A DNA stretch of 45,965 nucleotides. Origin: Candidatus Ozemobacteraceae bacterium. GTDB lineage: Bacteria; Muiribacteriota; Ozemobacteria; Ozemobacterales; Ozemobacteraceae. This document shows, piece after piece, positions 6,913 through 23,004 of the stretch. Location: the NCBI GenBank assembly GCA_017998915.1, contig JAGOCE010000001.1:1-45965 (forward strand). Direction: 5' to 3'. Under the pieces are notes generated by a model. That model was not told the origin of the DNA, searched no databases, and worked only from the letters and a program-made list of their open reading frames with translations. Made by a program: the position numbers and the translations under genes. Position 1 is the stretch's first letter; every line of letters begins with the position of its first letter.

Positions 6913-7833
6913 TCAGGGCTCGCCTTCGATGAGGCGGTTGAAGTAGCGCGATCCTTCGCGCTTCACCCAGAGGCGCTCTGAAGGAATGTCGCAGGGAAGG
7001 AAGACGGCATGTGCGATCTCCCTCGAGGGAACGAAGGGCACATCGCCGTGACCGGACCAGCGTGGATCGTCGCGATCAACCCAGAGCCTCAACCGGATGT
7101 GCGGGACGGCCGTCGGCCCATTGGGCCCGGGGAAGGGCGAGAACCGGATCGTGCCGGTGACCGCGGAGGCTGGCGAGGCGACGGCATCGCCGGGAACCCA
7201 AAGTGAGGTGAACACCGCGTCGCCAGCTTCGAACACTTCATGGGCCAGGCTCTCATCCGATTCAAGCGAGTACGGGTTGAGCCATTTTTTGTCGAGGGCT
7301 TTCTGAATCCGGTTGGGGGTGATGTCGACCGGGCCCGATCGCATGGCCTGGCGGAGCCGGAACAGCGTCAGCGGCGCTTCGAGGGATTCGAACCACGGGT
7401 AATGCTCGGGGTTGTGCAGCCGAAGCTTGTCGAGAAGGACGTCGAACTCCGGCAGGCTTGCCGGGGGCGCTGACGCGACGGGTGCCAGGAGGTCCATGCG
7501 CGTGCCGAGCATCCAGAAGACGTGGAGAGTGACCGGGGTGGGGCGCATGTTGGCCGCGACCGAGGCGAGATGTGTTCCTTCCTCGATCAGCAGTAATGGA
7601 ACGGAAGCCACATCGACGGGGCCCAGGTCGGTCGACATCGGGAACAGGTGGAGCGAGACCTCGTGTGCGAGCATCGTTCCGATGCGTTTTCTCAGCGAGT
7701 CGAGAACCCAGGACGGGAAATTCAGGCGGGAGGGCATCAGAATCTCGAGCGTGTCGCACAAGCCCATTCTTATAGGAAACAGCAGCAGGACGGCAAGAAG
7801 GAACATGCCTCGGAAGACAGGAAATGATCTCAT
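6913..7833 (-). CDS. secreted hypothetical protein
   Basis: 306-aa ORF with an N-terminal signal-like segment (FLLAVLLLFPIRMGLC). Its ATG overlaps the stop of the upstream gene as ATGA (7833-7830). Any resemblance to periplasmic solute-binding proteins is weak and cannot be verified here. Confidence 0.7.
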   Translation of the reverse strand: MRSFPVFRGMFLLAVLLLFPIRMGLCDTLEILMPSRLNFPSWVLDSLRKRIGTMLAHEVSLHLFPMSTDLGPVDVASVPLLLIEEGTHLASVAANMRPTPVTLHVFWMLGTRMDLLAPVASAPPASLPEFDVLLDKLRLHNPEHYPWFESLEAPLTLFRLRQAMRSGPVDITPNRIQKALDKKWLNPYSLESDESLAHEVFEAGDAVFTSLWVPGDAVASPASAVTGTIRFSPFPGPNGPTAVPHIRLRLWVDRDDPRWSGHGDVPFVPSREIAHAVFLPCDIPSERLWVKREGSRYFNRLIEGEP

Positions 7834-9659
7834 GCTGCCGTGTTCCCGTCATCCGCATATAGGTAGCCCAGGAACTGCCTGTCTGACCGTGCGAGCGTTT
7901 CCACGGCATTCTTGGCCTGGTCCGAGGTTTCCAGGCGGGATACCAGGACGAACCCGTCGAATGCCGATGTGAGGCTTACCATCAGATCGGGAGAGTCTTC
8001 GACGTTTCCGAGATCAGCGAACAGATACTGTGCCGATTCACGGGGAAAATTCTCGAACCACAGCTTCCAGGGGGCTGATTCGATGGCTTTTTCCGGACAT
8101 GGCGGCAAGGGGCCGGCGGGAACGACGACGGCATGCCCAGTTTCGTCCGAATTCCCGTGACTGATCTGTGCCGGTATGGCGTTTGAGGCGAGCCAGTTGA
8201 CGGTCCCGGAAGCCCAGGGGAGCCACCAGAGCTTGTGCTGAGTCGGACTCTTCCAGTGCAGATCGATCAGGAGAGGTCGCTTCTGATCGTTGGCGAAGGC
8301 TGCGGCCATAAGGGCGGCGGCGAGGGACGTGCCACAGCCCCGATGAGATCCGACGAAGGCGATCGTGCGGCATTCATTCTCATCGGCCTTCCTGGCAAGA
8401 TCGGCGGCGATTTTTGTCAGGATGAGCGCTTCGCGGGGTGATGTCGCTGCGAACGAAAGGGGCCGGAGCATGTCCGTGGCCGTTTCACTCGGTAGGGCGG
8501 GAATGGTGCCGATGACGGGAGGCTGATCGCTGAGAATCGAGCCTTGCGACCGGCCCTTTCTCCTGCGGAGCACGAACCAGACGATGAGCGGCCCGGAAAG
8601 CAGGCCGAGCGGTTGTGCCGAGAACCATGCATCCAGGATCCGCGACGGGAACGCGCGCGACTGGTGTGAGAGATCGAGTTTGCCGTATCCCGATTTGAAC
8701 AGGCTTGAAAGCGCCCTGTTCTGCTCGAGAAGGTGCGCAAGCTCGGTTCTCTTCTGCTGTAGCCCGGTCTGGGTCATTGCGACACTGCGCCGACGGGCGT
8801 CGACCTGTTGCTTCGACTGGGCGATCAGCTCGATCTCCTGCTGAATCCGGGTGATTTCGGATTTCAGACGTCTGAGCGCCACGGCATCAGCCTGGGCTGT
8901 GGTGGCGGCTGGATTCCGCACGGAGGGCGTGCGCGTGGGCACGGGGACACGGACCAGGGTGGGTGCATCGCGACCTTCACCTTCGCACGGGCGTACTCGT
9001 ATCTGGGTGCGAGCCTTCGCCGGGGCGGGACGGTGGGGGGGCTTTCGCGTGGCTGATTTCAGGTGGGCGGCTTCGGCTTCGATCACGGCGAGCTCCCGGC
9101 GGAGATTTTCAGCGGCGAGAGTGAGATTCTGGGACATCTCATCGAGCTTCTCGAGTTGGGATTCGTCCGAAAGCGGATCCTCGTCGGGCGAGGAAAAGTT
9201 TCGGTCAGCCTCGAGAAGTTCGATTTCATGCGCCAGTTTGAGGCCGATGCTCGCGAACAGTTCGCTTCTGGTGGCTTCCAGGGCGTTGGTGAGATGTGAG
9301 ATGAGGATGTCCGACCGCTCCGCGACCGAGGACGCGAACGGGGCCGTCAGCGTCAGAAAAAGCCCCGTCGATGGCGAGGAAATGTAGGCGATGTTCCAGC
9401 GGTGTCCGGTCCGGTCCGATTCCTCTTTCAGGATCGGTGTGGCGACCGCGCGATAGGCTGCCAGGATGCCGGTCGTCTCGAGGGTGGGGTAGGGGAGCGT
9501 CGCCTCCGTGTCGTGATCAATAATTATTGGTATAGAAATTTGCCACCTGGCAAGAGGGACGGCAAAACCCCAGACGAAATAAATAATAATAGATATTATA
9601 GCGGCGGCAACGGCGGCTCGTCGTGGGATCGCTCTCAGGAGGGTTCGAAGCTTCTGCAC
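7830..9659 (-). CDS. Wzc/GumC-like polysaccharide co-polymerase-type protein with a degenerate C-terminal P-loop domain
   Basis: GTG start. Architecture: TM1 (AAIISIIIYFVWGF), long coiled-coil region, TM2 (LSGPLIVWFVL), then a MinD/ParA-like domain. The Walker A position reads GSHRGCGTS (8325-8351), which lacks the canonical Lys. Confidence 0.7.
   Translation of the reverse strand: MQKLRTLLRAIPRRAAVAAAIISIIIYFVWGFAVPLARWQISIPIIIDHDTEATLPYPTLETTGILAAYRAVATPILKEESDRTGHRWNIAYISSPSTGLFLTLTAPFASSVAERSDILISHLTNALEATRSELFASIGLKLAHEIELLEADRNFSSPDEDPLSDESQLEKLDEMSQNLTLAAENLRRELAVIEAEAAHLKSATRKPPHRPAPAKARTQIRVRPCEGEGRDAPTLVRVPVPTRTPSVRNPAATTAQADAVALRRLKSEITRIQQEIELIAQSKQQVDARRRSVAMTQTGLQQKRTELAHLLEQNRALSSLFKSGYGKLDLSHQSRAFPSRILDAWFSAQPLGLLSGPLIVWFVLRRRKGRSQGSILSDQPPVIGTIPALPSETATDMLRPLSFAATSPREALILTKIAADLARKADENECRTIAFVGSHRGCGTSLAAALMAAAFANDQKRPLLIDLHWKSPTQHKLWWLPWASGTVNWLASNAIPAQISHGNSDETGHAVVVPAGPLPPCPEKAIESAPWKLWFENFPRESAQYLFADLGNVEDSPDLMVSLTSAFDGFVLVSRLETSDQAKNAVETLARSDRQFLGYLYADDGNTAA
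9516..9602 (-). other. pair of AT-rich synonymous-codon patches in the first TM region of the Wzc-like gene
   Basis: 9579-9602 reads GCT ATA ATA TCT ATT ATT ATT TAT (8 codons). 9516-9542 reads CAA ATT TCT ATA CCA ATA ATT ATT GAT (9 codons). Both runs are entirely A/T-ending. Confidence 0.8.
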
Positions 9660-9676: not shown

Positions 9677-10726
9677 TTACCGGGCCGATGTATTGCGGCG
9701 CAGCTGCTCGAACCGGGGAGTGCCGACGATGAAGGACGCGAGGGTCTTGATCGTCGTGCCGTCACCAGCCCTGAAATCCGCGTTTGCCCCGTGGGAGAGG
9801 AACAGCGTGAGGATGTCGTCGAACAACTTCGTCAGGTCTTTCGCGCGGGTGCGGGTCATCGACAGTTCCCAGTAGGCCTGACGTCCTGCTAACAGCAGTG
9901 GCGTGCTTCCGTCGCGGTCGAGTGGGTCGGTGTGGGCGCCGCTCTCGAGCAAGAGCTTCACACCTTCGGGCCAGAGAAAATGCGCTGCCAGGTGGAGTGG
10001 CGTCCGACCCTGGCTGGTCTGGGCCGCTGTTGAAGCACCGGCGGCGATCAGGTGACGGACGAGAATGTCGTGCCGGCGTCGGACAGCCGCGTGCAGGGCC
10101 GTTTCACCGGAATCATCCGCTCGTGAAAGGTCCGCGCCGGCCGAGGCGAGCATAAAGGCGGCGCCGGTTTTTCCCTGCCGGACCGCCTCGATCAGCGGCG
10201 TTGCCCCGCTGTTTTCCCGGGCATCGACCGAAGCCCCGTGGGCGAGAAGGACACGGATCGTCGGAACGGAGCCGCAGATGCTTGCAAGATGAAGAGGCGT
10301 AGCGCCGAACGAGTCGGTCACCGCCGCCGACGCCCCATGATCCAGCAGATACTCGGACATCGAGGCGAGGCCGCGCAGCGCCGCCATGTGCAACGGCGTC
10401 ATACCCCTCGACGTGCGGCCGGAAATGTCGGCACCGTGAGCGAGAAGAAGTTTTGCGACATCGAGATGCCCCATCCGGGCAGCCCAGTGAAGCGGTGCCA
10501 TCGCGTATCCGTCGGGGGTCGTGCCGTAGGGCGTCAGGGAGTTCGCTTCGCTCGCATTCCGGGCGAGAATTTCCCGGATGCGATCGATATCGGCGAGCTT
10601 CGCCGCCTCATGAATGTCACCAGCCGATGCCGAAAGCCCGCAGAAAAACAGGACAGCAAGCACCGCGGCCGGGATTGCCCGGCGGAACGTCGACAAGACT
10701 TGCTTTTCCATAGTAGGTGAATCCAT
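9677..10726 (-). CDS. secreted ankyrin-repeat protein
   Basis: The track ORF 9677..11524 is over-extended. The plausible start is the ATG at 10726 (MDSPTMEKQ...; alternative at 10711), followed by the signal peptide AAVLAVLFFCGLSASAGD. At least six ankyrin repeats are present (TPLHWAARMGHLDVAKLLLAHGAD, TPLHMAALRG, TPLHLASICG, TALHAAVRRRH, TPLHLAAHF...). Confidence 0.85.
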   Translation of the reverse strand: MDSPTMEKQVLSTFRRAIPAAVLAVLFFCGLSASAGDIHEAAKLADIDRIREILARNASEANSLTPYGTTPDGYAMAPLHWAARMGHLDVAKLLLAHGADISGRTSRGMTPLHMAALRGLASMSEYLLDHGASAAVTDSFGATPLHLASICGSVPTIRVLLAHGASVDARENSGATPLIEAVRQGKTGAAFMLASAGADLSRADDSGETALHAAVRRRHDILVRHLIAAGASTAAQTSQGRTPLHLAAHFLWPEGVKLLLESGAHTDPLDRDGSTPLLLAGRQAYWELSMTRTRAKDLTKLFDDILTLFLSHGANADFRAGDGTTIKTLASFIVGTPRFEQLRRNTSAR

Positions 10727-11832: not shown

Positions 11833-12753
11833 TCAGCGGGGCGTCCAGGCCTTGCCGGCCCGGTCGAGGATGAACGTCCGGTCATAGACTTCGTCGTCGT
11901 TTGACGCGACCTCGCGGGTCACCGTGCCGTTCTTCCAGGTCCATTTTTCGTCCCACTTGTCGTCGCGGTCGAGATCGACCTTTACGCGGTTCACCTGCGA
12001 TTCGCCGGCGTCTTTGTACAGGTTCACCTTCCAGGTGCGCCCCTTCGCCGCATCCTTGACCTTGTCGCCGGAAATATTCGCCGCGGCCACGGCAAGAATG
12101 TCCGTATCCATCGGCCTCAGGGCGAGTCCGTCGGTGGGTTTCGCGGGAACGCCGGGAGCCGCTTCGGCGATGGTCGGAGCCGGGCCGGACGCGGGTTTCA
12201 CCGACGACCAGGCGTTCAGGTTCACGTCATACCAGGTTTGGATCGTATACTGCTCGTCGTCCGCCGGAGCGACCTGCCGCTGGAGTCCTTCCGGGTCCCA
12301 GGACCATTTCTCGTCCCACGTGTCGTCGCGGTCGAGATCGATTTTCACGCGATTCACCTTCGCCTGGCCAGGATCTTTGAAAAGGTTCACTTTCCACGGC
12401 CGGCCTCGGATGGCGTCCTTGACCTTGTCGCCGGAGATGTTCGCCGCTGCCGCTGCGAGAATCTCCACGTCCATGGGCCGCACCGCGACGAAGCCGGCCG
12501 GGAGCTTCGCGTCAGGGTTCGTCGTGGTGGCCGGAGCGGCTGGTGCTGTGACCTGCGTCGGAGCGGGAACGGCTGCCGATGTTTCCCGTTGGCGCTGTGC
12601 CTGCCGAAACCGCTCGAGATCTTCGTTTACGCGGCGGAGCGCCTGCTCCTGCCGTTCGGACTGGGCCTGATACTGTTGGAACGCGTAGAAACTGCCGCCT
12701 GCGGTGCCGAGCAGGCCGAGGATGACGAGGGCGCGGAACGTCTTGTATCTCAT
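11833..12753 (-). CDS. membrane-anchored protein with coiled-coil segment and a tandemly duplicated ~92-aa W/K/D-rich domain
   Basis: 306-aa ORF. The ATG shares ATGA with the stop of the upstream radical SAM gene (12753-12750). It has an N-terminal TM helix (ALVILGLLGTAGGSFYAF), a Q/R/E-rich helix, a Pro/Ala/Thr linker, then two repeats each containing DLDRDD(T/K)WDEKW(S/T)W. Confidence 0.8.
   Translation of the reverse strand: MRYKTFRALVILGLLGTAGGSFYAFQQYQAQSERQEQALRRVNEDLERFRQAQRQRETSAAVPAPTQVTAPAAPATTTNPDAKLPAGFVAVRPMDVEILAAAAANISGDKVKDAIRGRPWKVNLFKDPGQAKVNRVKIDLDRDDTWDEKWSWDPEGLQRQVAPADDEQYTIQTWYDVNLNAWSSVKPASGPAPTIAEAAPGVPAKPTDGLALRPMDTDILAVAAANISGDKVKDAAKGRTWKVNLYKDAGESQVNRVKVDLDRDDKWDEKWTWKNGTVTREVASNDDEVYDRTFILDRAGKAWTPR
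11842..12117 (-). repeat. intragenic domain repeat, copy 2 (aa 213-304)
   Basis: RPMDTDILAVAAANISGDKVKDAAKGRTWKVNLYKDAGESQVNRVKVDLDRDDKWDEKWTW... By hand alignment, 47 of the first 61 residues are identical to copy 1. Confidence 0.85.
12205..12480 (-). repeat. intragenic domain repeat, copy 1 (aa 92-183)
   Basis: RPMDVEILAAAAANISGDKVKDAIRGRPWKVNLFKDPGQAKVNRVKIDLDRDDTWDEKWSW... The two copies are separated by a Pro/Ala-rich linker. Confidence 0.85.
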
Positions 12754-13649
12754 ATTTCCGACTCCGATGACAGAGAATGCTCCGTCGGCATCATGCCGCG
12801 GGCGATGGGAACGGTGCAGTTGCAGTAGTCATACAGGCAGGGGCGCGGCGCGTCGTTCAACGTGAACCGTTCGCCGGTGAAGTCGCCGAGCGACTCCATC
12901 TTGTATCGGCGGGCCGGGTAACAGCGCCAGGCTCCGCCCAGGTCGTCGAGGATGAAGGCGCGTGAGCCGGCCCAGCAGGGCCGTCCCTTGAACGAGTGTT
13001 GTATATCGCCTGTCATATTATGGCCGCCGAGCGCGAGAATGGAGGCACGTTCGGCCTCGGTATACTCGATGACGTCGCGATTCTGCTTCTCCGGCTGGAT
13101 CTTGAACGAGATGCCCATGTTACCGAAACGGGCGGCCAGCCCCGGAAGATGCGGCAGGGCCGCGCGCGTGGCGACGGAGGTCACGCACAGATGCGGCCGG
13201 GGAAGCCCGGGAACGGCGTCTTGCGGGAGGAGTTTCGCGAGCCAGCAGGCGCGATCGACGAACTCGTCGAGCTTCGTCGTGTCGTTCACGTGCTCGAGGT
13301 GCAGGGAACAGGCGAACACGCTGATGCGGCCCTTCGCCGCCGTGACGAAGGCGGCGAGCCTGTCGCGTGGTGCCGTGAAGTTCGTCACGACCGAGATGCG
13401 GTGGCCGAGGCACGCAATGGTCGAAACGATGTCGTCGAGCTCCGGGTGCATGAAGGGCTCGCCTCCCGAGAGCTTGATCTCCCACCGGCCGGGCAGGCGG
13501 GAGAACCCCGGGGTGAACGCTTCCGCGGGGCGGGGAGGACGGCCCCGGTCACGTTTGTGGCGCTGGGTGCAGTAGGAGCAGTGCAGATTGCAAACCGTCG
13601 TCATGTTCCAGCTGACGACGCCCTCCGGCGGCCGCGGCGTTGCGTTCAT
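12750..13649 (-). CDS. radical SAM enzyme (paralogue A), function unknown
   Basis: The start I favour is the ATG at 13649, which shares ATGA with the upstream stop (13649-13646); the track ORF extends to 13724. CNLHCSYC lies at 13569-13592. Other motifs: KLSGGEPFMHP and the C-terminal Cys signature CLYDYCNCTVPIARGMM. Confidence 0.85.
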   Translation of the reverse strand: MNATPRPPEGVVSWNMTTVCNLHCSYCTQRHKRDRGRPPRPAEAFTPGFSRLPGRWEIKLSGGEPFMHPELDDIVSTIACLGHRISVVTNFTAPRDRLAAFVTAAKGRISVFACSLHLEHVNDTTKLDEFVDRACWLAKLLPQDAVPGLPRPHLCVTSVATRAALPHLPGLAARFGNMGISFKIQPEKQNRDVIEYTEAERASILALGGHNMTGDIQHSFKGRPCWAGSRAFILDDLGGAWRCYPARRYKMESLGDFTGERFTLNDAPRPCLYDYCNCTVPIARGMMPTEHSLSSESEI

Positions 13650-14506
13650 GCGCCTGTCCCTCCGGCGGGGAGGCCCTCGATCATGCCGCGGTTGGCCGGA
13701 ACGGTGCAGGGACAGATATCCCACGGGCAGACGCGGGGCTCGGGGAACGGCCGGAAATCGCCTGTGACGGCGTTGCCCAGATGCCCCGTCTCGTTGCGCC
13801 GCGCGGTCCTGCAGCTCCAGACGTCGCCGGACTGCGTGACGACGAAATACTCGATGCCCGCATGACAGCGGCGACCGCGGTAACTCGGCGCGAGGTTCGC
13901 CTCGCGCGGCGTGGGCGCGTGCCCGAGAAGCTCCGCCAGCAGGGGTTTCTCGTCTTCCGCATAGGCTGCGATCCCGTGTTTTGTCTTCATGACCTGCGGG
14001 AAGAAGCGCAGCCCCGCCGCCTTCACCATCTCCGCGGCGCGAGCGATCGTTTCGAGCCGGCCGGGAACCAGCACCGAATTCACGACGAGCCGGGCGTCGG
14101 ACGTGAGCTGGCTCCTGAGATGGAGGGCCCGGTCGATGAAGGCTGCGGGCGTGACGCGTTCGAGGTGCATCGATGCCGAAACGATCCCGATCCGGCCTGC
14201 GGCGCGCCGGGCGAAACGTTCCAGGTCGCCCTTTTCCGCCGACAGGTTCGTGAGGACCGAGAGCAGGTGCGGCGTGCCCGAAACCAGGCCCGGGATGATC
14301 CGGTCGAGGAACAGCGGATGGGTGAACGGCTCGCCGCCGCTCATTTTGATCTCATACCGCATCGGCAGCTTCGCGTAGAACCGGAGGATCGCGGCGATCG
14401 CGTTCGCATCCGGCACGCCGACGCGATGCTTCGGGTTTTGAATACAATAGCTGCAATTATAATTGCACGAGCCGAGCACCTGCCACTCAATCGTCGGCTG
14501 TCTCAT
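13646..14506 (-). CDS. radical SAM enzyme (paralogue B), function unknown
   Basis: The start I favour is the ATG at 14506, which shares ATGA with the upstream stop (14506-14503); the track ORF extends to 14872. CNYNCSYC lies at 14444-14467. Other motifs: KMSGGEPFTHP and the C-terminal CPWDICPCTVPANRGMI. Clearly paralogous to the gene at 12750..13649. Confidence 0.85.
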   Translation of the reverse strand: MRQPTIEWQVLGSCNYNCSYCIQNPKHRVGVPDANAIAAILRFYAKLPMRYEIKMSGGEPFTHPLFLDRIIPGLVSGTPHLLSVLTNLSAEKGDLERFARRAAGRIGIVSASMHLERVTPAAFIDRALHLRSQLTSDARLVVNSVLVPGRLETIARAAEMVKAAGLRFFPQVMKTKHGIAAYAEDEKPLLAELLGHAPTPREANLAPSYRGRRCHAGIEYFVVTQSGDVWSCRTARRNETGHLGNAVTGDFRPFPEPRVCPWDICPCTVPANRGMIEGLPAGGTGA

Positions 14507-15504
14507 GCGGCGTTTTCCGCCCGACGGAGCTTCGCGGCCAGTTTTGCGTTCTGCTCGAACTTTCCGCACCGCGTGCATCCGGGAAAATACTCTCCCCGAG
14601 CGAGCCTCCCGCGCATCGCGTTCCAGTCGGAACCGTGCCAGAGGGAAGAAAAACGTGTTCCATCGCCGAGCCTGCCGATCGCGGTCTCGGTGTTGCAACA
14701 GAAATAGACCGTGCCGTCGACGGCGATCCGCGCGTACCGGTCGCCCATGTGACACCCGACCTCGGCGATGGGGGCCGTCGCGGACCCGCCCGCCAGCACC
14801 TGCGCCCGGAGCGTGGCCAGGTTGTGCCTGACGCTGCGGCGCTCGGCGCGGGCGGAGGCTTCGGGGATCCATTCGTCCAGCAGGCGCCGCCGCTGTTCGT
14901 CCGTGACGCGCACGGCTTCGGTGCCGCGTCCGAGACTCGCGAGTTTGAAATTCACCCGCTCGGCGTCATAGACGGCGGCCAGATCGATCATGTCGCCGAT
15001 CCGATCTGCGTTCAGGGAGCAGACGACCTGGACGTGCCTGTCGCGGCATCCGGCGTCTCGCCTGGCGGCGAGTCGCCTCGTGAGCCTCGCCCAGGAATCC
15101 GTGGCTGAGGAGGGGTGAAAGGCACGGTAACCCGCTTCGTCGGCGGAGTGTATACCTATAAGAATAGTATCGACGCCGTCGGCCGGGAGACGGTCGGCGG
15201 CGTCGGCGAGAAGATTGGAGATCAGCGTCACGTCGAGATTCATCGCCTTCAGGCCGGCGAGAAGTTCGATCGCGCGGGGATGGGTGAGAGGTTCGCCCAT
15301 GCCCGAAACGATGACGCTCGAGAGACGTCCCAGGGAGGCGGCTTCCGCGACCGTCGTCAGCAGGGAATCGACGTTGGCCCGCAGGCTCTTCCAGGCTGGC
15401 GTGCGCGGGGATGCCAGGAGCGGGGAATGGTCCCAGCAGGTCACGCAGTCGGTGTTGCAGGCGTTCGTGATGTCGAGATGCAGGGTCACGGGGCCTTGCG
15501 TCAC
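14503..15504 (-). CDS. radical SAM enzyme with SPASM/twitch-like C-terminal Cys-rich domain
   Basis: The start I favour is the GTG at 15504, which shares GTGA with the glycosyltransferase stop (15504-15501); the track ORF extends to 15642. CNTDCVTC lies at 15436-15459. Other motifs: SGMGEPLTHP and the C-terminal GCHMGDRYARIAVDGTVYFCC...FPGCTRCG. Confidence 0.85.
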   Translation of the reverse strand: MTQGPVTLHLDITNACNTDCVTCWDHSPLLASPRTPAWKSLRANVDSLLTTVAEAASLGRLSSVIVSGMGEPLTHPRAIELLAGLKAMNLDVTLISNLLADAADRLPADGVDTILIGIHSADEAGYRAFHPSSATDSWARLTRRLAARRDAGCRDRHVQVVCSLNADRIGDMIDLAAVYDAERVNFKLASLGRGTEAVRVTDEQRRRLLDEWIPEASARAERRSVRHNLATLRAQVLAGGSATAPIAEVGCHMGDRYARIAVDGTVYFCCNTETAIGRLGDGTRFSSLWHGSDWNAMRGRLARGEYFPGCTRCGKFEQNAKLAAKLRRAENAA

Positions 15505-17150
15505 GTCATGCTCCTCATTGCCGAGCGCACCAACTCGATGTTCGAAACGGGCGTGCCGTCTGAGGCTTGGCACGCCGTCAGCCGGGCGATGCCGCGATAC
15601 AGGTCTTCCTTCCGTCGGAGAAGATGCCCGAGAAATGCGCACAGTTCGGTCGCGAACCCGGCGGCGTCGGCACGCTCGTTCCCGAACATCTTGAGCAGGG
15701 CGATGAGGCCTGCCCAGTCGCCGAACGGCGCGGCAGCGTCCATGAGGCGCCGCGCGGCATCGACCCGGACGTGCGGGGTGGCCCCGGGAAGCCGTTTCGC
15801 AAGAAAAACGACCGCACGGAGCACGGCTTCAACCGGCAGGCCGCGCCCGGCAGCCTCTGTGGCGATCTCGATCGCGCCGGCGCCGGCCACGGCAGGGTCG
15901 GCATCCGGTGCGCCCTTGTCGTGGCCGTGGTCGTGATTGAGGGCCTGCGCCGTATCGACGAACAGCGCTTCGGGAAGGTTCAGCTCCGCCGAGGCGCGCA
16001 GGATCCCGTCTCCGACCAGGGCTTCGGCGGCTTCGACCTGCGCGGCCGGAAGAAGGAGCCGGAGGAGCTCCGCCGCCGCGAGCCGGGCGCCGTTGTCGGG
16101 CATGAGAGTATGCGCCGCGGCCGAGGCCTTCTGCCTGGCGGCGGGATCCCGCCAGGCGGTCACCCGGGGAGGCAGGGTTTCCGACAGGGGGCCCGGGGGA
16201 AGAAACGTCGCCGCTCCGGCAGCCACAGCTCTCGCTGCGCGGGCATCCTGCTCGTCGGCGATCTTCTCCTGGGGAAGGAACACCGACGGTACGCCGGCCT
16301 GCATCAGCTCGGCGAAGGTGTTGTAGCCGGCGGCGCAGACCGCGATGTCGAGACCGGCCATCAGCTCGGCGGCGCCGAGCCCCGACAGCCAGGTGATGCG
16401 TTCTCCCGGAACCTGGCGGCCGCGGTAGAGCGGCCCGGCCCCGACGACGAGGTGAAGTGAAGGATCGGGCGCGAGGGCGGCGATCGTCGATTCGAGCTGG
16501 GCGGCGGCCGTCGGGTCGCCCCCGCCGCCGGCCGACAGGTAGACGGCGAGGCGGTCGTCAGACACGCCGAGATGCCTGCGAGCCGCGTCGCGCGAAACCA
16601 GTTCGGCCCGCTCACGTGCGATGACGGGGCCGACATGCGTCACGCGCGCGCGGATCTGTTCGGGCACCGGCACGGGGGCATCGGTTTCGGGAACGAGAAT
16701 ACGGTCATAGAGCGGCAGCATCGCCTGGAACTCGGCCCGCTCGGCGAACGCGGATTTCATCGGACGGAAAATGAACGCCCGTTTCCGGCAGAGGTCGAGC
16801 GCCGGCAACAGTTCGCCGAAACTGCCTCTGGGGAACGAATCCACGATGAACAGGTCCGGCCGCAGAAGCCCGAGCGAGTGCCAGACCCACTGCTTGGCGA
16901 GGGCGAGATAGGCGGTCTTGTCGATCCCGGTCTCGGCCACGGAGGTCTTGGACGGCAGTTTGAACGAGGCGAACCGCTCGTGAAAAAGCAGCGCATCGGC
17001 TTCGGAGGACGTGAGAAACCATATCTCCAGCTTTATATCCAGCGCGTGCGCGTACCGCCGGAGCCATCGGGCAATCGCGGTCAGCCGGGTGAGATGCCCG
17101 ACCCCCGCCCCGTTGACGGCGTAGTTCACGATCCGAAGCGTCTGGCCCAT
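15501..17150 (-). CDS. MurG/GT28-like glycosyltransferase with ~170-aa C-terminal extension of unknown function
   Basis: The start I favour is the ATG at 17150 (MGQTLRIVNYAVNGAGVGHLTR), 8 nt after the upstream stop; the track ORF extends to 17675. Motifs YLSAGGGGDP and VCAAGYNTFAELMQAGVPSVFLP resemble Glyco_tran_28 C-terminal domains. I recognise no motif in the last ~170 aa. Confidence 0.78.
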   Translation of the reverse strand: MGQTLRIVNYAVNGAGVGHLTRLTAIARWLRRYAHALDIKLEIWFLTSSEADALLFHERFASFKLPSKTSVAETGIDKTAYLALAKQWVWHSLGLLRPDLFIVDSFPRGSFGELLPALDLCRKRAFIFRPMKSAFAERAEFQAMLPLYDRILVPETDAPVPVPEQIRARVTHVGPVIARERAELVSRDAARRHLGVSDDRLAVYLSAGGGGDPTAAAQLESTIAALAPDPSLHLVVGAGPLYRGRQVPGERITWLSGLGAAELMAGLDIAVCAAGYNTFAELMQAGVPSVFLPQEKIADEQDARAARAVAAGAATFLPPGPLSETLPPRVTAWRDPAARQKASAAAHTLMPDNGARLAAAELLRLLLPAAQVEAAEALVGDGILRASAELNLPEALFVDTAQALNHDHGHDKGAPDADPAVAGAGAIEIATEAAGRGLPVEAVLRAVVFLAKRLPGATPHVRVDAARRLMDAAAPFGDWAGLIALLKMFGNERADAAGFATELCAFLGHLLRRKEDLYRGIARLTACQASDGTPVSNIELVRSAMRSMT

Positions 17151-17158
17151 GAACGCGG

Positions 17159-18448
17159 CTACGATGCGTCGACGTAACGACCGGGGAGTGTTCCGCCGTG
17201 TAGGAGCCCCGCCTCGGCCGCCGCCGCGGCCTCTTCCGCATCGAGATGGTGCTGGGGTCCTTCGTAGTCCGGGTGATCGTGGCGGAACTCGGAGACTTCG
17301 GGAATGAAGTCGCCGTCGAACGAGCCGTCCGTGAAGACATCCCACCACAGGACGGTTCCGGCGAGGTTCACGCGGCCGTAGTCGTTGAAGCCGCGAACGG
17401 TGCCGGCCATCCGGGCATACCGTTCGCGCCGCCTTCGGATCTTGTCGCGCGGCGCGATATACCGACGGTCGTAATCGGTATCGGCGAGGGTGTCGCGGGA
17501 TCGCTTCGGCCGCTGCCATTTGTAGGTGTCGCGGTCGGCCTTGCTCTTGAGCTCCCCGAGTTGCGTCAGTTCGGCATCGAGCTGTGTGTTGATGCGTTCG
17601 AGATACAGGGCTTTCGCAGCCGTGCCGCGAAGAACCTTGAACGCTTCGGCGAGGTCGGGGGCGGCCGAGATGCACCGGTCGATCGCGGCCATGTCGCCAT
17701 CGAGCAGATACCGGACGAGAAGTTCGTGCGCCCGCTCGAGGTGGCGCTCGTCGAGGTGCTCGAGATACCCGCGGAGTTCGTCGCTGCGCTGCCTGACGGC
17801 TTCGACGTCGGCGAGCAGGGCGTCCGTCTCGGAGATTGCCCGGTCGGACTCCTCGATGGCTTTCCAGGCGTCGAGAATTTTCGGCCGGAGCTGCGCGAAT
17901 GCATCGAGGCCGGGAAACCGCTCGAGAACCTCGTCGCCCGCCTTCCAGTCGTCGTAGAACTCGAGTTGCCAGAAGGCCGTTCTATAGGAAGGAGTATCGT
18001 ATCCGGACTCCATCAGCCTGTTCAGCCGAGGATGCTGGGCCTTGGCCGACAGCTGGCGGGCCGGCTCTGACTCAGCGAGCTGCTCCGCGCGTTTTTGTCC
18101 GAGCCTCGCGACGATGCTCTCGGCGTTGGAAAAGCGCGGGTCGGCCTCGGCCTCGGCGAGTTCGGCCGTGCGGGCGTGTCGGTCCTCTTCGCGCTGGGCG
18201 ACGAGGTCGGGGCGCGACAGGATGGGACAGCCGGTCAGGAGCGCGGCGCGCTCGAGCGCGGGCGGGCTCAACTCGGGAAGCAGGGCTACGGCAAGCCGCA
18301 GAGCCTCCTCCTCGCGCGCCCTGACGGCCTCGTTCAGAGCCGCCGTGTTTTCGGCCTTGAGTTTGCGCAGTTCCTCGATTTCCGTCACCGCCGTCTCGGA
18401 AAGGCCACGGGCAGCCTGGACGACGTCATTCGATCGGTAAACGCTCAC
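17159..18448 (-). CDS. hypothetical coiled-coil protein (first gene of the radical SAM operon)
   Basis: The start I favour is the GTG at 18448, preceded by AAGGTGAGAG; the track ORF starts at 18529. The protein is rich in E/R/A/L heptad-like segments. No catalytic motif recognised. Confidence 0.65.
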   Translation of the reverse strand: MSVYRSNDVVQAARGLSETAVTEIEELRKLKAENTAALNEAVRAREEEALRLAVALLPELSPPALERAALLTGCPILSRPDLVAQREEDRHARTAELAEAEADPRFSNAESIVARLGQKRAEQLAESEPARQLSAKAQHPRLNRLMESGYDTPSYRTAFWQLEFYDDWKAGDEVLERFPGLDAFAQLRPKILDAWKAIEESDRAISETDALLADVEAVRQRSDELRGYLEHLDERHLERAHELLVRYLLDGDMAAIDRCISAAPDLAEAFKVLRGTAAKALYLERINTQLDAELTQLGELKSKADRDTYKWQRPKRSRDTLADTDYDRRYIAPRDKIRRRRERYARMAGTVRGFNDYGRVNLAGTVLWWDVFTDGSFDGDFIPEVSEFRHDHPDYEGPQHHLDAEEAAAAAEAGLLHGGTLPGRYVDAS

Positions 18449-18512
18449 GTGTCTCTCACCTTCTCGTTCTCGTTCCCGCTGCCGGCGCGGGACAGTGCCT
18501 GATTGCCGGCCA

Positions 18513-18572
18513 GGAAAAACCGGCCGCACATTTTCCCTGAAAGCTCAGGGACAAATGTAACACAGCGGCCGG
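18513..18572 (-). terminator. compound hairpin plus T-run, likely intrinsic terminator of the phospholipase C-like gene
   Basis: On the minus strand: CCGGCCGC (18572-18565) ... CCCTGA-gctt-TCAGGG (18550-18535) ... GCGGCCGG (18527-18520), followed by TTTTT (18519-18515). It lies 40 nt downstream of the stop at 18614. Confidence 0.55.
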
Positions 18573-18613
18573 TTCGGGGGGAGCGGGGAATTATTCCGGA
18601 AGTGTTGGTGAGA

Positions 18614-19918
18614 TCAGCGAAGAACGGCGATCAGAGCGGCCAGGGTCGCCTCGACGGCGTTGGAGAGGCTGCCGCCGATCTCGTTGAGGAGCGGGGTCTT
18701 TTTGTTCCGGTGGCCGTCGATCCAGCTTTGCACGGACGTGTCGGGGAAATAGGGCGAAACGTCGAACGCGCCGTCGGCGAAGGGGTCGTAACTTGGGTCG
18801 CCGACCAGTTTCTTCGGGAAGGCTTTGCCCACGAGCTTGTCGATCTTGTGCGCGCGGTCGAAGGCGCTTTTGTTGCGGGCCTTGAACAGCTTCATCAGCA
18901 TCGTGGTGGGCGGATCATCCTGCTCGTCCTGCGCGGCGCACAGGGCGGCGACCTTCTGGGAAAGGCCGGAATACAGCTTTTCCGGGGCTGCAGCGCCGAG
19001 GATCTGCATGCGTGCTGCGACGGCCTCGAAGAGGAAATGGCGATTCGACAGCAGTTGCGTGTTGTCGCTGCTGAACCGTTCTTTGTCTTTCGCCAGGATG
19101 GCTTTCGCGATGACCAGCGGATTGAGGAACGGCACGGCACTCGCATGATACGGTGCGGTCATGTCCTGCAGGTAATGAATGGTGCTCGCGAGGAAGCGGG
19201 CTGCCCAGTACCGGTCGCCGGCGCACAGCGCGACCTGGGCCAGATTGGCGAACGCGACGAAGCGCAGATGGGTCATACCCTGCTTGAGAGAAGGCTTGAT
19301 CTTGAGGGAAATCCAGTTTTCACAGGGGAAATACATGTGGAACGGTGCCTGGGAACTCGTTCCCTTCAGCGAACCGTAGGGGATCTCGCCGTATCGCGGG
19401 TCGCCGGCGCCAAACAGTCCTTGATCCATGCCCCAGTCGGGTTCGTCGGAGAACAGGACCAGCCAGTCCCCGAAGCTACGCGCCATGTTCGGGTTCGCCA
19501 GGGCGGCGTTCTGAACGGCATCGAAGCCGGCTGGGAAGACGACCTTCGAGAAGGCTGTCGGGGCCACGCCGAGAATCTCGAGGAATTGCTTCTGGGACAT
19601 CGTTCCGGGCTGGCGGAGCAGCGCGGCATTCGCGTCCGAGAGGAGCCAGTGTGGATACGTGTACGCCCGCTGTTTCCAGTCGTGAAACAGGCGGAGCGCC
19701 GTCTTGAGCGCTTCGTTGTTCCGGGCGACGAACGAGGCGAGGGTGGTCGGCCTGACCACCTTGCCCAGGGCGGGCAGTTCGTCCTCCAGGGCGTTCACCG
19801 CGACGCTGGTCAGCAGAAAATGTTTGTCCCACGCCGATGAGACGGAAGAAGCCAGCAGCACGAAAATGCAGGCAACCCCCGCGATATATCTGACCGGCAT
19901 CGGTACTCGTGCGTTCAT
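18614..19918 (-). CDS. secreted zinc-dependent phospholipase C-like protein
   Basis: Signal peptide (IFVLLASSVSSA). The predicted mature N-terminus WDKH resembles the W1/His zinc ligands of Bacillus and Clostridium PLCs. HYLQDMTAPYHAS matches the H-x-x-x-D-x-x-x-P-x-H zinc motif of that family. GGAGG lies upstream of the ATG. Confidence 0.65.
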   Translation of the reverse strand: MNARVPMPVRYIAGVACIFVLLASSVSSAWDKHFLLTSVAVNALEDELPALGKVVRPTTLASFVARNNEALKTALRLFHDWKQRAYTYPHWLLSDANAALLRQPGTMSQKQFLEILGVAPTAFSKVVFPAGFDAVQNAALANPNMARSFGDWLVLFSDEPDWGMDQGLFGAGDPRYGEIPYGSLKGTSSQAPFHMYFPCENWISLKIKPSLKQGMTHLRFVAFANLAQVALCAGDRYWAARFLASTIHYLQDMTAPYHASAVPFLNPLVIAKAILAKDKERFSSDNTQLLSNRHFLFEAVAARMQILGAAAPEKLYSGLSQKVAALCAAQDEQDDPPTTMLMKLFKARNKSAFDRAHKIDKLVGKAFPKKLVGDPSYDPFADGAFDVSPYFPDTSVQSWIDGHRNKKTPLLNEIGGSLSNAVEATLAALIAVLR

Positions 19919-20661: not shown

Positions 20662-21353
20662 CAGTCGAGTAGCAGCTTCAGGACGGTGTCGAGATCCGAG
20701 AGGTCGTTGAGAGCCCAGGTCGCGCCGGCGGCTTCGAGCTCATACCGTGAGGCCGATCCGGTGGCCACGGCGAGGCTCCGCACGCCCCATGGGTGGCAGG
20801 AGGCGACGTCGTGGACGGTGTCGCCGACGACCGTCACCGTCTCCGGGCTGAACGGCTTCCCGGCGAGTTCGGCGGCACGACGCATCGCGAGGCCGACCAG
20901 CTCGGCGCGCGTCGGATGCTCGCAGCCGAACGCGCCGAAGGGAAAATAGCCGGCGATACCGAACCGGTCGAGTTTGATACGGGCCCCTTCGCGGATGTTG
21001 CCCGTCACCAGTCCGAGACAGGCGCGGCCGGACGAGGCGAGGGCATTCAGGAGCGGTTCGATGCCGGGTTTCAGATGACCCTTGCCGGCGATTTCCCGGC
21101 GCAGGATCGCCGTGTAGTGGTCTTTGAATTTCGAGATCGATTCCGGGTCGGGAAACGCCCTGCCGTCGCGGATACACACTTGCTTGATCGCGTTCAGATC
21201 GGTGTTCCCGTCGAGTCTGATCCCTTCGAGACCGCGCGCGGCGCCGAGCACGTCGATCATCGATCGCTCGATCGCATGGTATCCGCTCCGGTCGGCTGAA
21301 AGAAGGGTTCCGTCGATGTCGAATAGAATCAGGCGATCACGATGGCTCGTCAT
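20661..21353 (-). CDS. HAD-superfamily hydrolase (phosphoglycolate phosphatase-like)
   Basis: Motif I LILFDIDGTLL, motif II LVTGN, motif IV VGDTVHD. Start at ATG 21353 or 21377; either choice overlaps the end of the cyclase gene. Confidence 0.85.
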   Translation of the reverse strand: MTSHRDRLILFDIDGTLLSADRSGYHAIERSMIDVLGAARGLEGIRLDGNTDLNAIKQVCIRDGRAFPDPESISKFKDHYTAILRREIAGKGHLKPGIEPLLNALASSGRACLGLVTGNIREGARIKLDRFGIAGYFPFGAFGCEHPTRAELVGLAMRRAAELAGKPFSPETVTVVGDTVHDVASCHPWGVRSLAVATGSASRYELEAAGATWALNDLSDLDTVLKLLLD

Positions 21354-23004
21354 GCGGTTCTCCTGGAGATGGTGCATTGGAGGAGGCGGGGGTGTCGGCG
21401 GGCGCGGCCGGGGCGACGGGTTCAGCCTGGGCGGTGGCCAGGCGGGAGCGGACGCTCACGAATTCCTTGGGTTTTTCCTGCTTTTCCCGGATCATCCCCT
21501 GGATTTCATAGACGCGGACACGGCCTTCCATCCCTCTGATCTGAACATTCTCGTGCGGAATGGCGCGGACTTCTTTGGCCACTTGGGCAAAGGTGTTCTC
21601 GTCGACGAGGATCGTCGTCTTGAACTCCTTGTTGAGTGCCTCGAGTCGCGATGCGAGATTGACGGTGGAACCCATGACCGTGAACTCCTGACGACGCTCG
21701 GAACCGATGTTGCCGGCCAGAACGGGGCCGCTTGCTATACCTATGCGAATTTTAAAGCATTCGCGGTTTTCCTGTGCCCATTTGGCTTGGAGCTGCTGCA
21801 AACGGTCGAGCATCGCGAGGGCGGCCTCGATTGCCGCCCTGCCGGAAGAGGGGAGGTCGCCGAGAACGCCGAACCTGGCCATGACGGCGTCGCCGATGAA
21901 CTTGTCGATCTCCCCGTCGTGCTCGAGGACCACGTCGGTCATCGCCGAAAGATACTCGTTCATTGCGGCTACGACCTGTGCCGGGGCCATGCCTGAACTG
22001 AACGCCGTGAACCCGGCAATATCCGAAAACAGGATCGTCGCGTTCTTCTCGATGCCGCCGAGGTTGACCGAGCCGGGGTTCGCCAGGAGCGTATCGACCA
22101 GTTCCGCCGAAGTGTATTTCGAGAAGATCTCCTTGAGTTTCTTCTTTTCGGCGAGTTCGCGTTCGCTGAGCTGCTTCGATGACGTCAGCTCGGTGCGGGT
22201 CTGGAGGAATACGTTCGCGTTCGAGATCGCCATGCCCATGAAGGAAACGAGCGAGATCATGAACCGCAGGTCGGCCTCGTCGACCTCCTGGCGGTTGTCT
22301 TGAAATGACTCGATATATATCATTCCAAACGTTTCGCCTGGGATGCCGATGGGCATCGCCACGAGTGTGTCTGGTAGAGGGTCGCGGTCGACGAGACCCC
22401 GTGTTTCCGGGTCATCGAGGGCGGCGTTCCGATAGACGAGCTGTCCCCGGGAGAACGACCAGGTGAGAAAATGCTCGACCTTGTCGACGGGCAGGATCAG
22501 GGAGTCCCTGATTTCGTCCTTGAAGCCGGCCCATCGGAAAGGATACAACTCGTTCCTGGAACGGTCGTGGAGAAACAGGATGTAGCGCGCCACGCCGAGT
22601 TCCTGCACGAGCATCTCCGTGATGGCGTTGAACACTTTTTCCGGGTCGAGGGTGGTGGTAAGGTTTTTGACCTTGCTGAAGAGCATCGAGGCCTGCCGGC
22701 GAACCTGTTGCAACCGGGTCTTGAGCTCGTCGTTCTTCTTCTGAAACTCCTCGCGCAGCCGGTCGGCATAAGCTTTTTCGAGACGCTGCCGCGTTTCGTC
22801 GCCCAGGCGGATACGCCGGTCGCCCATGGCATATCTAAAAATATAAAAAAGACAGCCTGCCAGCATGACGGCCATCGCGGATGCGAAGAAAAACAGAGCC
22901 CAGGGCAGGGGATTCGGGGGCAAGATGAACTCGACGCTCTCCGCCGCCCGAACGGCAGCAGGAAACGTCGCAAGAGAAATCAGCGCCAGGATGGGGCGTC
23001 GCAT
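21337..23004 (-). CDS. membrane-anchored GAF domain adenylate/guanylate cyclase (class III)
   Basis: Signal/TM segments, a coiled-coil, a GAF-like region, then the cyclase core ATILFSDIAGFTAFSS...IGDAVMARFG...RIGIASGPVLAGNIG...TVMGSTVNLASRLE. Confidence 0.9.
   Translation of the reverse strand: MRRPILALISLATFPAAVRAAESVEFILPPNPLPWALFFFASAMAVMLAGCLFYIFRYAMGDRRIRLGDETRQRLEKAYADRLREEFQKKNDELKTRLQQVRRQASMLFSKVKNLTTTLDPEKVFNAITEMLVQELGVARYILFLHDRSRNELYPFRWAGFKDEIRDSLILPVDKVEHFLTWSFSRGQLVYRNAALDDPETRGLVDRDPLPDTLVAMPIGIPGETFGMIYIESFQDNRQEVDEADLRFMISLVSFMGMAISNANVFLQTRTELTSSKQLSERELAEKKKLKEIFSKYTSAELVDTLLANPGSVNLGGIEKNATILFSDIAGFTAFSSGMAPAQVVAAMNEYLSAMTDVVLEHDGEIDKFIGDAVMARFGVLGDLPSSGRAAIEAALAMLDRLQQLQAKWAQENRECFKIRIGIASGPVLAGNIGSERRQEFTVMGSTVNLASRLEALNKEFKTTILVDENTFAQVAKEVRAIPHENVQIRGMEGRVRVYEIQGMIREKQEKPKEFVSVRSRLATAQAEPVAPAAPADTPASSNAPSPGEPHDEPS

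Follow-up and report, generated by a model that had tools for sequence, protein, structure and literature searches.

A conserved gene cassette combining a GT-B glycosyltransferase with an optional set of radical SAM enzymes in Candidatus Ozemobacteraceae and distant bacterial phyla

Modification pathways that combine radical S-adenosylmethionine (SAM) enzymes with a glycosyltransferase follow a known logic. In mycofactocin biosynthesis, MftC acts on the C-terminus of MftA, a peptide of ~30 residues ending in G-V-Y, and the GT2 enzyme MftF glycosylates. Further points of comparison are BlsE (cytosylglucuronate decarboxylase), BtrN (2-deoxy-scyllo-inosamine dehydrogenase) and DesII, which sit in antibiotic pathways together with sugar-activation genes; viperin and pVip; the STM4011/STM4012 cassette of Salmonella, formed by two adjacent and uncharacterised radical SAM genes; and the glycosyltransferase MurG. 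Here we analysed a 45,965-nt stretch of DNA from a Candidatus Ozemobacteraceae bacterium (assembly GCA_017998915.1, contig JAGOCE010000001.1, positions 1 to 45,965; hereafter the window), which carries at 11833-18448 a cassette of six minus-strand genes. In order, these encode a helical 'coiled-coil' protein (cc), a glycosyltransferase (GT), three radical SAM enzymes (rSAM1, rSAM2 and rSAM3) and a membrane-anchored repeat protein (tail). The invariant core of this cassette is cc, GT and tail, to which zero, one or three radical SAM genes are added as a module.

Scans of the six proteins reached no NCBIfam or PADLOC cut-off and returned general superfamily or domain matches only in Pfam; searches of single protein sequences against the PDB gave marginal matches, which improved to E values of ~1e-7 to 1e-9 with family profiles. 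No description of the cassette was found in full-text literature searches, and to the extent checked it is undescribed. An initial annotation of this DNA had proposed a dedicated modification pathway that, by size and motifs, corresponded to none of the characterised radical SAM clusters. The searches of NCBIfam, PADLOC and the PDB gave no assignment at threshold, in agreement with the latter statement, and the proposal is supported by this lack of known families together with a conserved neighbourhood, the opposite of known enzymes in an unconserved setting. The cassette resembles mycofactocin in tightly clustering a SPASM-type radical SAM protein, a glycosyltransferase and a gene product with an invariant extreme C-terminus. 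It differs in that rSAM1 scores 37.0 bits against the MftC model TIGR03962 (cut-off 265) and in the absence of MftB, the protein providing the RRE (recognition element of RiPPs, ribosomally synthesised peptides that are modified after translation), and of MftD and MftE. In place of a short peptide there is a folded protein of 430 residues with the tip [D/E]-x-S, GT is a GT-B enzyme (MurG/GT1-like) and not a GT2, and both the cc tip and GT are also kept where no rSAM gene is present. With no small open reading frame (ORF), RRE, oxidase or peptidase in it, the cassette does not belong to the mycofactocin group.

To examine gene order, relative loci (designated by L numbers) were retrieved by three genome scans, seeded with rSAM2, with the tail family and with cc, respectively. 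The rSAM2-seeded scan found the gene order of the window again in Riflebacteria, Holophagales, Blastocatellia, 'Deltaproteobacteria'/Myxococcota and one Gloeomargaritales cyanobacterium. In the tail-seeded scan, scored with hidden Markov models (HMMs) built from orthologues and counted over 48 loci with sufficient upstream DNA, all six genes were colinear in 41 loci, and the individual genes were present in 47 (rSAM3), 46 (rSAM2), 45 (rSAM1), 42 (GT) and 41 (cc). Among the 50 loci of the cc-seeded scan with at least 6 kb of downstream sequence, the complete six-gene order was found in 38, and cc was followed by GT in every one. The exceptional loci L062, L067, L083 and L126 were left out of the detailed reading of gene order. 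Colinearity on this scale across phyla, which answers the neighbourhood check suggested in the initial annotation, is not the product of chance. The hosts include Myxococcota, Acidobacteriota, Riflebacteria (the clade of the window), Planctomycetota, Spirochaetes, Cyanobacteria, Armatimonadota and Chlorobiota, among others, and amount to at least a dozen bacterial phyla. Every host found is a metagenome-assembled or uncultured genome, and the nearest loci belong to metagenome-assembled genomes (MAGs) of Riflebacteria/Ozemobacteraceae.

The distinction between core and add-on emerges from loci with fewer genes. Four loci of the cc-anchored scan, in Chlorobiota, Bacteroidota and Armatimonadota, present cc, GT and tail without any rSAM gene, and in the Bacteroidota locus L168 and the Chlorobiota locus L163 the three genes lie compactly together on one strand. 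Four Armatimonadota/Capsulimonadales loci have one rSAM1-like gene after cc-GT-tail. Two low-GC Acidobacteria MAGs distribute the system over separate contigs, one carrying rSAM1-rSAM2-rSAM3-tail (L008, L123) and the other carrying cc-GT (L177, L181). Because of these rSAM-less, single-rSAM and split loci, cc, GT and tail are assigned to the core and the rSAM genes to the add-on. A converse assignment, with the rSAM genes and tail as the core, was dropped when the cc-anchored scan revealed cc-GT-tail units without rSAM genes and split systems within single MAGs. The picture centred on the radical SAM enzymes given in the initial annotation is correct in that all three are part of a conserved cassette, but their role in it is accessory.

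Several loci depart from the common arrangement in other ways. The split systems lie at L008:7546-13668 and L123:5849-10291; in the former the rSAM block lies between a preceding gene for an S41 C-terminal-processing peptidase and a following Hsp70/MreB-like gene, and in the latter a coiled-coil-like ORF of 276 aa is inserted between rSAM1 and rSAM2. In L007 (939-7274) and L014, from Myxococcota/Pseudomonadota MAGs, ~5 kb separate cc from GT, with genes for an MscS-like channel, for a protein of SPFH/Band-7 type and for an NAD-dependent epimerase in between, and a NAGPA phosphodiester glycosidase gene comes after tail. Two 'delta-proteobacterial' loci (L051:3864-4148 and L052:4064-4381) harbor an additional conserved gene of 94-105 aa that overlaps the cc start by 4 nt; its absence from the window and from most loci indicates that it is not part of the core.

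In the window, the six coding sequences are located precisely where they had initially been placed, and their junctions read as then described. GT and rSAM1 share GTGA (15504-15501), whereas ATGA is shared by rSAM1 and rSAM2 (14506-14503), rSAM2 and rSAM3 (13649-13646) and rSAM3 and tail (12753-12750); 8 nt separate the TAG stop codon of cc from the ATG of GT. Start-stop overlaps are also found in clean low-GC copies (e.g. L012) and in L051 and L052. Read from the sequence, the six genes form one operon-like unit that would be co-translated. A ribosome-binding-site-like GAAGGTGAG lies upstream of the GTG start codon of cc, and the 165-nt leader contains no sigma-70 consensus promoter, Rfam family or credible small ORF. 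GT and rSAM sequences with identical boundaries exist in public collections, where the sole name found for them is 'radical SAM protein [Candidatus Ozemobacteraceae bacterium]'. The coordinates of all features are collected in Table 1.

Table 1. Features of the cassette and its leader, in order of transcription (window coordinates).
Feature	Position	Strand	Remarks
Leader upstream of cc, 165 nt	18449-18613	minus	presumed promoter and 5' untranslated region
cc (helical 'coiled-coil' protein)	17159-18448	minus	GTG start, 429 aa, first gene of cassette
cc C-terminal arm, residues 400-429	17162-17251	minus	disordered, variable, Ala-rich; ends D-A-S-COOH, codons 17170-17162
GT (glycosyltransferase)	15501-17150	minus	ATG start, 549 aa
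GT catalytic core, ~residues 1-375	16026-17150	minus	predicted GT-B glycosyltransferase
GT C-terminal extension, ~residues 376-549	15504-16025	minus	helical, poorly conserved
rSAM1	14503-15504	minus	GTG start, 333 aa
rSAM1 auxiliary Cys 251, 269/270, 310, 313	14557-14754	minus	C251-x17-C269/C270-x39-C310-x2-C313
rSAM2	13646-14506	minus	ATG start, 286 aa
rSAM2 C-terminal Cys 214, 232, 260, 265, 267	13682-13867	minus	C-x17-C...C-x4-C-x-C-T-V-P
rSAM3	12750-13649	minus	ATG start, 299 aa
rSAM3 C-terminal Cys 225, 243, 271, 276, 278	12792-12977	minus	paralogous to rSAM2
tail (membrane-anchored repeat protein)	11833-12753	minus	ATG start, 306 aa
tail N-terminus MRYKTFRALV and transmembrane helix	~12670-12753	minus	Pro-rich linker, then domains; bitopic
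tail ~95-aa helix and beta-meander domain, two copies	12205-12492, 11839-12129	minus	AlphaFold2 model

Downstream of cc, GT was previously described as having a GT28/MurG-type core. The half that binds the uridine diphosphate (UDP)-sugar does match, but the assignment proved too specific, since GT1 enzymes match equally well. The only glycosyltransferase family detected in Pfam is Glyco_tran_28_C (PF04101; 32.9 bits against a cut-off of 22), covering residues 261-347, and PF03033 was not detected in the N-terminal half in the same scan. Searches of the PDB with a profile of the GT family likewise aligned positions 254-364 only, with MurG (3s2u, E = 6.7e-7) as the best match, followed by the GT1 enzyme YjiC (E = 1.2e-6), and with UGT and OleD as further matches over these positions; MGD1 is also listed. 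Motifs invariant among 21-54 orthologues (NGxGxGH, DxFPxG, GGGGD, AGYN..E and P..Q....D.Q..R), together with PF04101 and the profile matches, place GT among the predicted GT-B nucleotide-sugar glycosyltransferases. With MurG it shares the GT-B fold signature, an N-terminal glycine-rich loop with a histidine (NGAGVGH), the Glyco_tran_28_C domain and the top PDB match. It is nevertheless not a MurG: it scores 31.7 bits against TIGR01133 (cut-off 250), through the C-terminal domain only, its gene follows cc outside the cell-wall (dcw) cluster, and MurG has no counterpart of the helical C-terminal extension. This extension spans 110-175 aa across the family and bears a weak likeness to a designed helical repeat (5cwh, E = 0.012).

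The cc protein, annotated at the outset as a coiled coil, is modeled by AlphaFold2 as an all-helical bundle with long helices (mean predicted local distance difference test [pLDDT] 90), from which residues 400-429 extend as a disordered arm (pLDDT < 50). The family comprises 552 clusters at 50% identity and has no match in Pfam, NCBIfam or PADLOC. Comparison of the model against the PDB with Foldseek returned just generic coiled coils, the best with an E value of 9e-3 and template-modelling (TM) scores below 0.25. Conservation is concentrated at the extreme C-terminus. D427 and S429 are invariant among 22 homologues with identities down to 25%, and within the family DxS terminates 156 of 167 members and ExS another seven, so that 163 of the 167 end in [D/E]-x-S-COOH following a variable, disordered linker of ~30 residues. 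The tip is kept in every type of architecture, including those without rSAM genes. The possibility that it serves as a radical SAM substrate was dropped on these grounds: a tip that is equally conserved in the absence of any rSAM cannot be primarily the substrate of one. In the cyanobacterial locus L012, the cc orthologue carries a hydrophobic, transmembrane-like N-terminus.

For tail, the AlphaFold2 model (mean pLDDT 88, above 93 in both domains) agrees with the initial description as a membrane-anchored repeat protein and reveals two repeats. The conserved N-terminus of the family reads MK[Y/F]KTFR, and members contain from one to three copies of the domain, each with invariant K, D, R, N and W residues and the motif DLDRDxKWDEKW. 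At least 429 homologues exist and, where named, all are designated 'hypothetical protein'; no match to tail was found in Pfam, NCBIfam or PADLOC, and Foldseek searches of the model against the PDB and a viral fold library gave no significant match. Candidate likenesses to OspA, LolB and MORN-like folds were rejected, with TM scores below 0.3. Orthologues from low-GC Acidobacteria (L008, L123) present a signal-like N-terminus ending in Cys, which we read as a lipoprotein signal. Together with the transmembrane helix of other members, this lipoprotein-type signal suggests that the tail domains are probably extracytoplasmic.

All three rSAM proteins belong to the radical SAM superfamily, as indicated by a CxxxCxxC motif and a GGE-type SAM-binding box. 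The cluster-binding motifs translate exactly as initially reported (CNTDCVTC at 15436-15459 in rSAM1, CNYNCSYC at 14444-14467 in rSAM2 and CNLHCSYC at 13569-13592 in rSAM3), whereas an SG(G/M)GEP box said to be present in each was found in rSAM1 (SGMGEP) but reads SGGEP in rSAM2 and rSAM3. The Pfam Radical_SAM model (PF04055, cut-off 29.5 bits) matches rSAM1 with 42.1 bits, rSAM3 with 45.1 and rSAM2 with 29.0, and rSAM2, though marginally below threshold, lacks none of the residues that are invariant among its orthologues (assessed for rSAM2/3 in 32 orthologues plus paralogues). The HMM searches suggested in the initial annotation thus yielded Radical_SAM and SPASM matches, and none of the three proteins reached an NCBIfam subfamily cut-off. 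Based on their conserved residues, the three proteins are predicted to be catalytically intact twitch-type enzymes that are dispensable for the core.

The C-terminal region of rSAM1, correctly anticipated to be SPASM/twitch-like, matches the Pfam SPASM model (PF13186) with 31.5 bits and has a BtrN-like Cys spacing. A full SPASM domain is defined by seven Cys in the arrangement CX9-15GX4C-gap-CX2CX5CX3C-gap-C, binding two auxiliary 4Fe-4S clusters, and a twitch domain by two Cys spaced ~18 residues from each other in a beta-hairpin and, further downstream, a CxxC or its equivalent, binding a single auxiliary cluster. The Cys residues of rSAM1 suffice for one cluster, which sets it apart from SPASM proteins proper, and their spacing, together with the alignment of profile positions 248-316 to the twitch region of BtrN (165-238, E = 1.6e-7), points to a twitch domain of BtrN type. 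The best solved relatives of rSAM1 in profile searches are BlsE (7vob, E = 4.7e-9), with PqqE (E = 8.7e-8) behind and DesII at E = 6e-3. Like BlsE, BtrN and DesII, rSAM1 has a Cys pattern for a single auxiliary cluster and no RRE; unlike them, it lies in a cassette without sugar-activation genes, and it scores 20 bits against the BlsE model TIGR04466 (cut-off 400), the match over the catalytic-core half being generic.

rSAM2 and rSAM3 were confirmed to be paralogues, with ~35-37% identity and the common signature C-x17-C...C-x4-C-x-C-T-V-P-x2-R-G-M, and they constitute two separate orthologous groups across phyla. Neither matches PF13186, and the pattern of their five C-terminal Cys is consistent with a twitch domain. 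Their joint profile identifies viperin as the closest PDB relative (6b4c, E = 1.6e-7), followed by BlsE (E = 9e-7), with YydG and MoaA behind. The likeness to viperin and pVip extends to size (~290 aa) and to PADLOC, where pVip provides the only matches. The viperin alignment, however, ends at about residue 90-137, the five conserved C-terminal Cys of rSAM2/3 have no equivalent cluster in viperin, and the cassette offers no kinase or nucleotide context of the viperin kind. Scores of 41.0, 27.5 and 21.6 bits against NF038283 (cut-off 180), with PADLOC pVip matches covering the first ~80 residues, place the rSAM proteins outside the viperin/pVip family. The best NCBIfam match of rSAM2 is the STM4011 family (NF038073), whose model is the sole one in NCBIfam to cover rSAM2 (residues 11-269, aligned with 9-255 of its 278 positions) and rSAM3 almost from end to end. 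With scores of 44.9 and 27.5 bits, respectively, against a cut-off of 200, neither protein belongs to this family, and, in a further difference from the Salmonella cassette, NCBIfam has no matching model for cc, GT or tail; the literature mention of STM4011 that was found is unrelated to function.

More distant relatives of rSAM2/3 (~25% identity) occur in islands of at least 15 consecutive same-strand radical SAM genes, located at L029:1438-19317 (Endomicrobiaceae MAG OY762939.1) and L020:2397-20095 (Planctomycetales MAG CAYOMI010000001.1), as well as in L021 and L027 (Omnitrophota). These islands mix SPASM, B12-binding, tetratricopeptide repeat (TPR)-fused and short twitch-like types, and GDSL lipases flank the island of L020.

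Of the two outcomes contemplated in the initial annotation, protein or peptide cross-linking plus glycosylation and an unusual glycoconjugate, the evidence leans to the latter, and we estimate a probability of roughly 50% that the cassette directs assembly of a glycoconjugate with sugar-tailoring radical SAM enzymes rather than peptide cross-linking. The radically tailored glycoconjugate would be assembled at the inner face of the membrane. GT would take a UDP-sugar and engage cc through its helical-repeat C-terminal extension, its active site or both, and the terminal Ser of the cc tip would be the likeliest sugar acceptor, or at least a docking element bringing cc to GT. The rSAM enzymes would then modify the sugar, either on the UDP-donor or once attached, by hydrogen-atom abstraction of the kind seen in BlsE, BtrN and viperin, resulting in decarboxylation, oxidation or dehydration. 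Through its conserved, putatively cytoplasmic N-terminus MK[Y/F]KTFR, tail would anchor the complex to the membrane, and it may couple it to an extracytoplasmic partner. In this specific form, with the cc tip as sugar acceptor or docking arm and the sugar radically tailored in proximity to the membrane, the proposal is tentative and we regard it as possible, with the odds against it. A more elaborate scheme appears decidedly unlikely: cc would be a new type of carrier or scaffold, GT would O-glycosylate its terminal Ser, the rSAM enzymes would in turn rebuild the sugar into a protein-bound or released carbohydrate-derived cofactor or signal, and the output would be coupled across the membrane via tail, an arrangement with no described counterpart.

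Several observations weigh against glycoconjugate assembly with sugar tailoring. BlsE, BtrN and viperin are matched weakly and, with the exception of the BtrN twitch region, over just the generic SAM-binding half, and peptide-modifying enzymes score in a similar range (PqqE, 8.7e-8; YydG, ~1e-5; SkfB). The cassette contains no sugar-activation gene, flippase or protease. The three-residue cc tip could be purely a docking motif, and the role of tail in the mechanism is a guess, its fold matching nothing. To our knowledge, moreover, the characterised GT28 enzymes in CAZy all use lipid acceptors, which favours a glycolipid pathway. In such a pathway, GT would glycosylate a membrane lipid, as do MurG and the monogalactosyldiacylglycerol (MGDG) synthases, and the rSAM enzymes would remodel either the lipid or its sugar head group, in the manner of calditol synthase and HpnH; tail would handle the product outside the cytoplasm, and cc would be a scaffold whose tip docks GT. 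Glyco_tran_28_C as the sole family match of GT, with MurG the best PDB match and MGD1 listed, fits this explanation, but the MurG equivalog score is far below its cut-off, PF03033 went undetected and the match of the UDP-sugar half extends equally to soluble GT1 enzymes. A membrane-anchored or lipidated tail, the transmembrane-like N-terminus of cc in L012 and the weak Foldseek likeness of tail to LolB and OspA would likewise suit a glycolipid, although the LolB match is not significant (TM ~0.2). An optional set of zero, one or three rSAM genes is what head-group tailoring would be expected to produce, and calditol synthase, which figures in the reference list of PMC13459092, sets a precedent for radical SAM chemistry on the glycosylated head group of a lipid; matches to the radical SAM enzymes of tetraether lipid synthesis (Tes/GDGT) in NCBIfam, however, are negligible, and the cassette has neither a flippase nor a lipid-synthesis gene. 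A glycolipid pathway also gives no reason for the constant position, ahead of GT, of a 430-aa protein whose C-terminal tripeptide is near-invariant, and overall we find it somewhat unlikely.

RiPP-type maturation, in which the rSAM enzymes would cross-link, epimerise or oxidise the cc arm or tail before its export and GT would then glycosylate, would follow the mycofactocin logic, and anSME and QhpD are precedents for cytoplasmic maturation of exported proteins by radical SAM enzymes. The SPASM match of rSAM1, weak NCBIfam matches to peptide maturases (MftC, PqqE, ScmE/F, PapB and WgkB) and the presence of PqqE, YydG and SkfB in the PDB profile searches are compatible with it, but all maturase family scores fall far below their cut-offs. 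The Cys motif of the rSAM proteins begins at residues 14-20, leaving no room for an N-terminal RRE, the Pfam scan detected no PqqD-like or RRE domain in the cassette proteins, and the cassette contains no peptidase and, as in the leader, no credible ORF for a small precursor. The locus therefore falls outside the RiPP-type maturase systems. A conserved tip after a disordered arm does resemble a tethered core peptide, yet the cc tip is maintained without rSAM genes, and so is tail, which consequently is not primarily an rSAM substrate either. The invariant K, D and W of each tail repeat could be read as modification sites, but the repeats are confidently predicted beta-rich domains, so these charged residues may be structural. 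We therefore judge maturation of this type to be unlikely. Highly improbable, in our assessment, is a function in anti-phage defence, with viperin-like rSAM enzymes making modified nucleotides or nucleotide-sugars and GT and the membrane protein as effector or sensor. Viperin is the best PDB relative of rSAM2/3 and pVip the sole PADLOC match (up to 50 bits, for rSAM3), but the latter is limited to the generic cluster-binding region. In PADLOC-DB v2, cc, GT and tail have no match at E < 0.01, and the weak N-terminal pVip matches of the rSAM proteins do not make the cassette a known defence system. Patchy distribution over distant phyla, unrelated flanks and an elevated G+C content would be in line with a defence element; the flanks, however, are not defence islands, synteny is conserved in Ozemobacteraceae, tail matches no viral fold and the core exists without rSAM genes.

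If the reading based on the anatomy of the locus is correct, the cassette defines two protein families free of annotation (cc with 552 clusters, tail with at least 429 homologues). It also defines a new pair of orthologous groups of twitch-like radical SAM enzymes, as well as a GT-B transferase whose constant partner is a protein ending in a near-invariant tripeptide. It would provide a tractable entry to new radical sugar chemistry or to a new modification of protein C-termini, with the natural series of zero, one and three rSAM genes as a ready-made dissection of the pathway. Since all carriers found are uncultured or MAGs, and hence beyond classical genetics, heterologous expression is the only route. 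Should the cassette belong to ordinary cell-envelope housekeeping, its value would lie mainly in the annotation of several hundred 'hypothetical' proteins.

The cassette has a G+C content of 66.5%, compared to 60.6% in its left and 61.5% in its right flank, a difference suggestive of horizontal transfer from a lineage richer in G+C. At third codon positions the G+C content differs little. Within the Ozemobacteraceae the cassette lies in conserved synteny, and its flanking genes are common only to the window's own family (L002-L004) and not to loci outside it. The polysaccharide deacetylase, methyltransferase, HAD hydrolase and 434-aa secreted protein were accordingly rejected as members of the cassette, being common only to Ozemobacteraceae or to the closest relative. 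The gene for the last of these (18614-19918, minus strand) lies between the cassette and the methyltransferase gene and encodes a protein that has no Pfam match and resembles a signal peptide at its N-terminus; its presence in the closest relative, L002, and absence from L003 and L004 give it the appearance of a recent insertion. At the opposite end, the polysaccharide deacetylase gene is convergent with the end of the cassette, and the minus-strand regions 6913-9659 and 9677-10720 contain two ORFs (306 and 609 aa) without a Pfam match and, next to them, an ankyrin-repeat protein whose 347-aa reading has a hydrophobic segment close to its beginning. An adenylate/guanylate cyclase gene is found at most ~3 kb upstream both in the window (21337-23004, GAF-cyclase) and in the Chlorobiota locus L163 (6140-7963, TPR-cyclase), a proximity that is probably coincidental.

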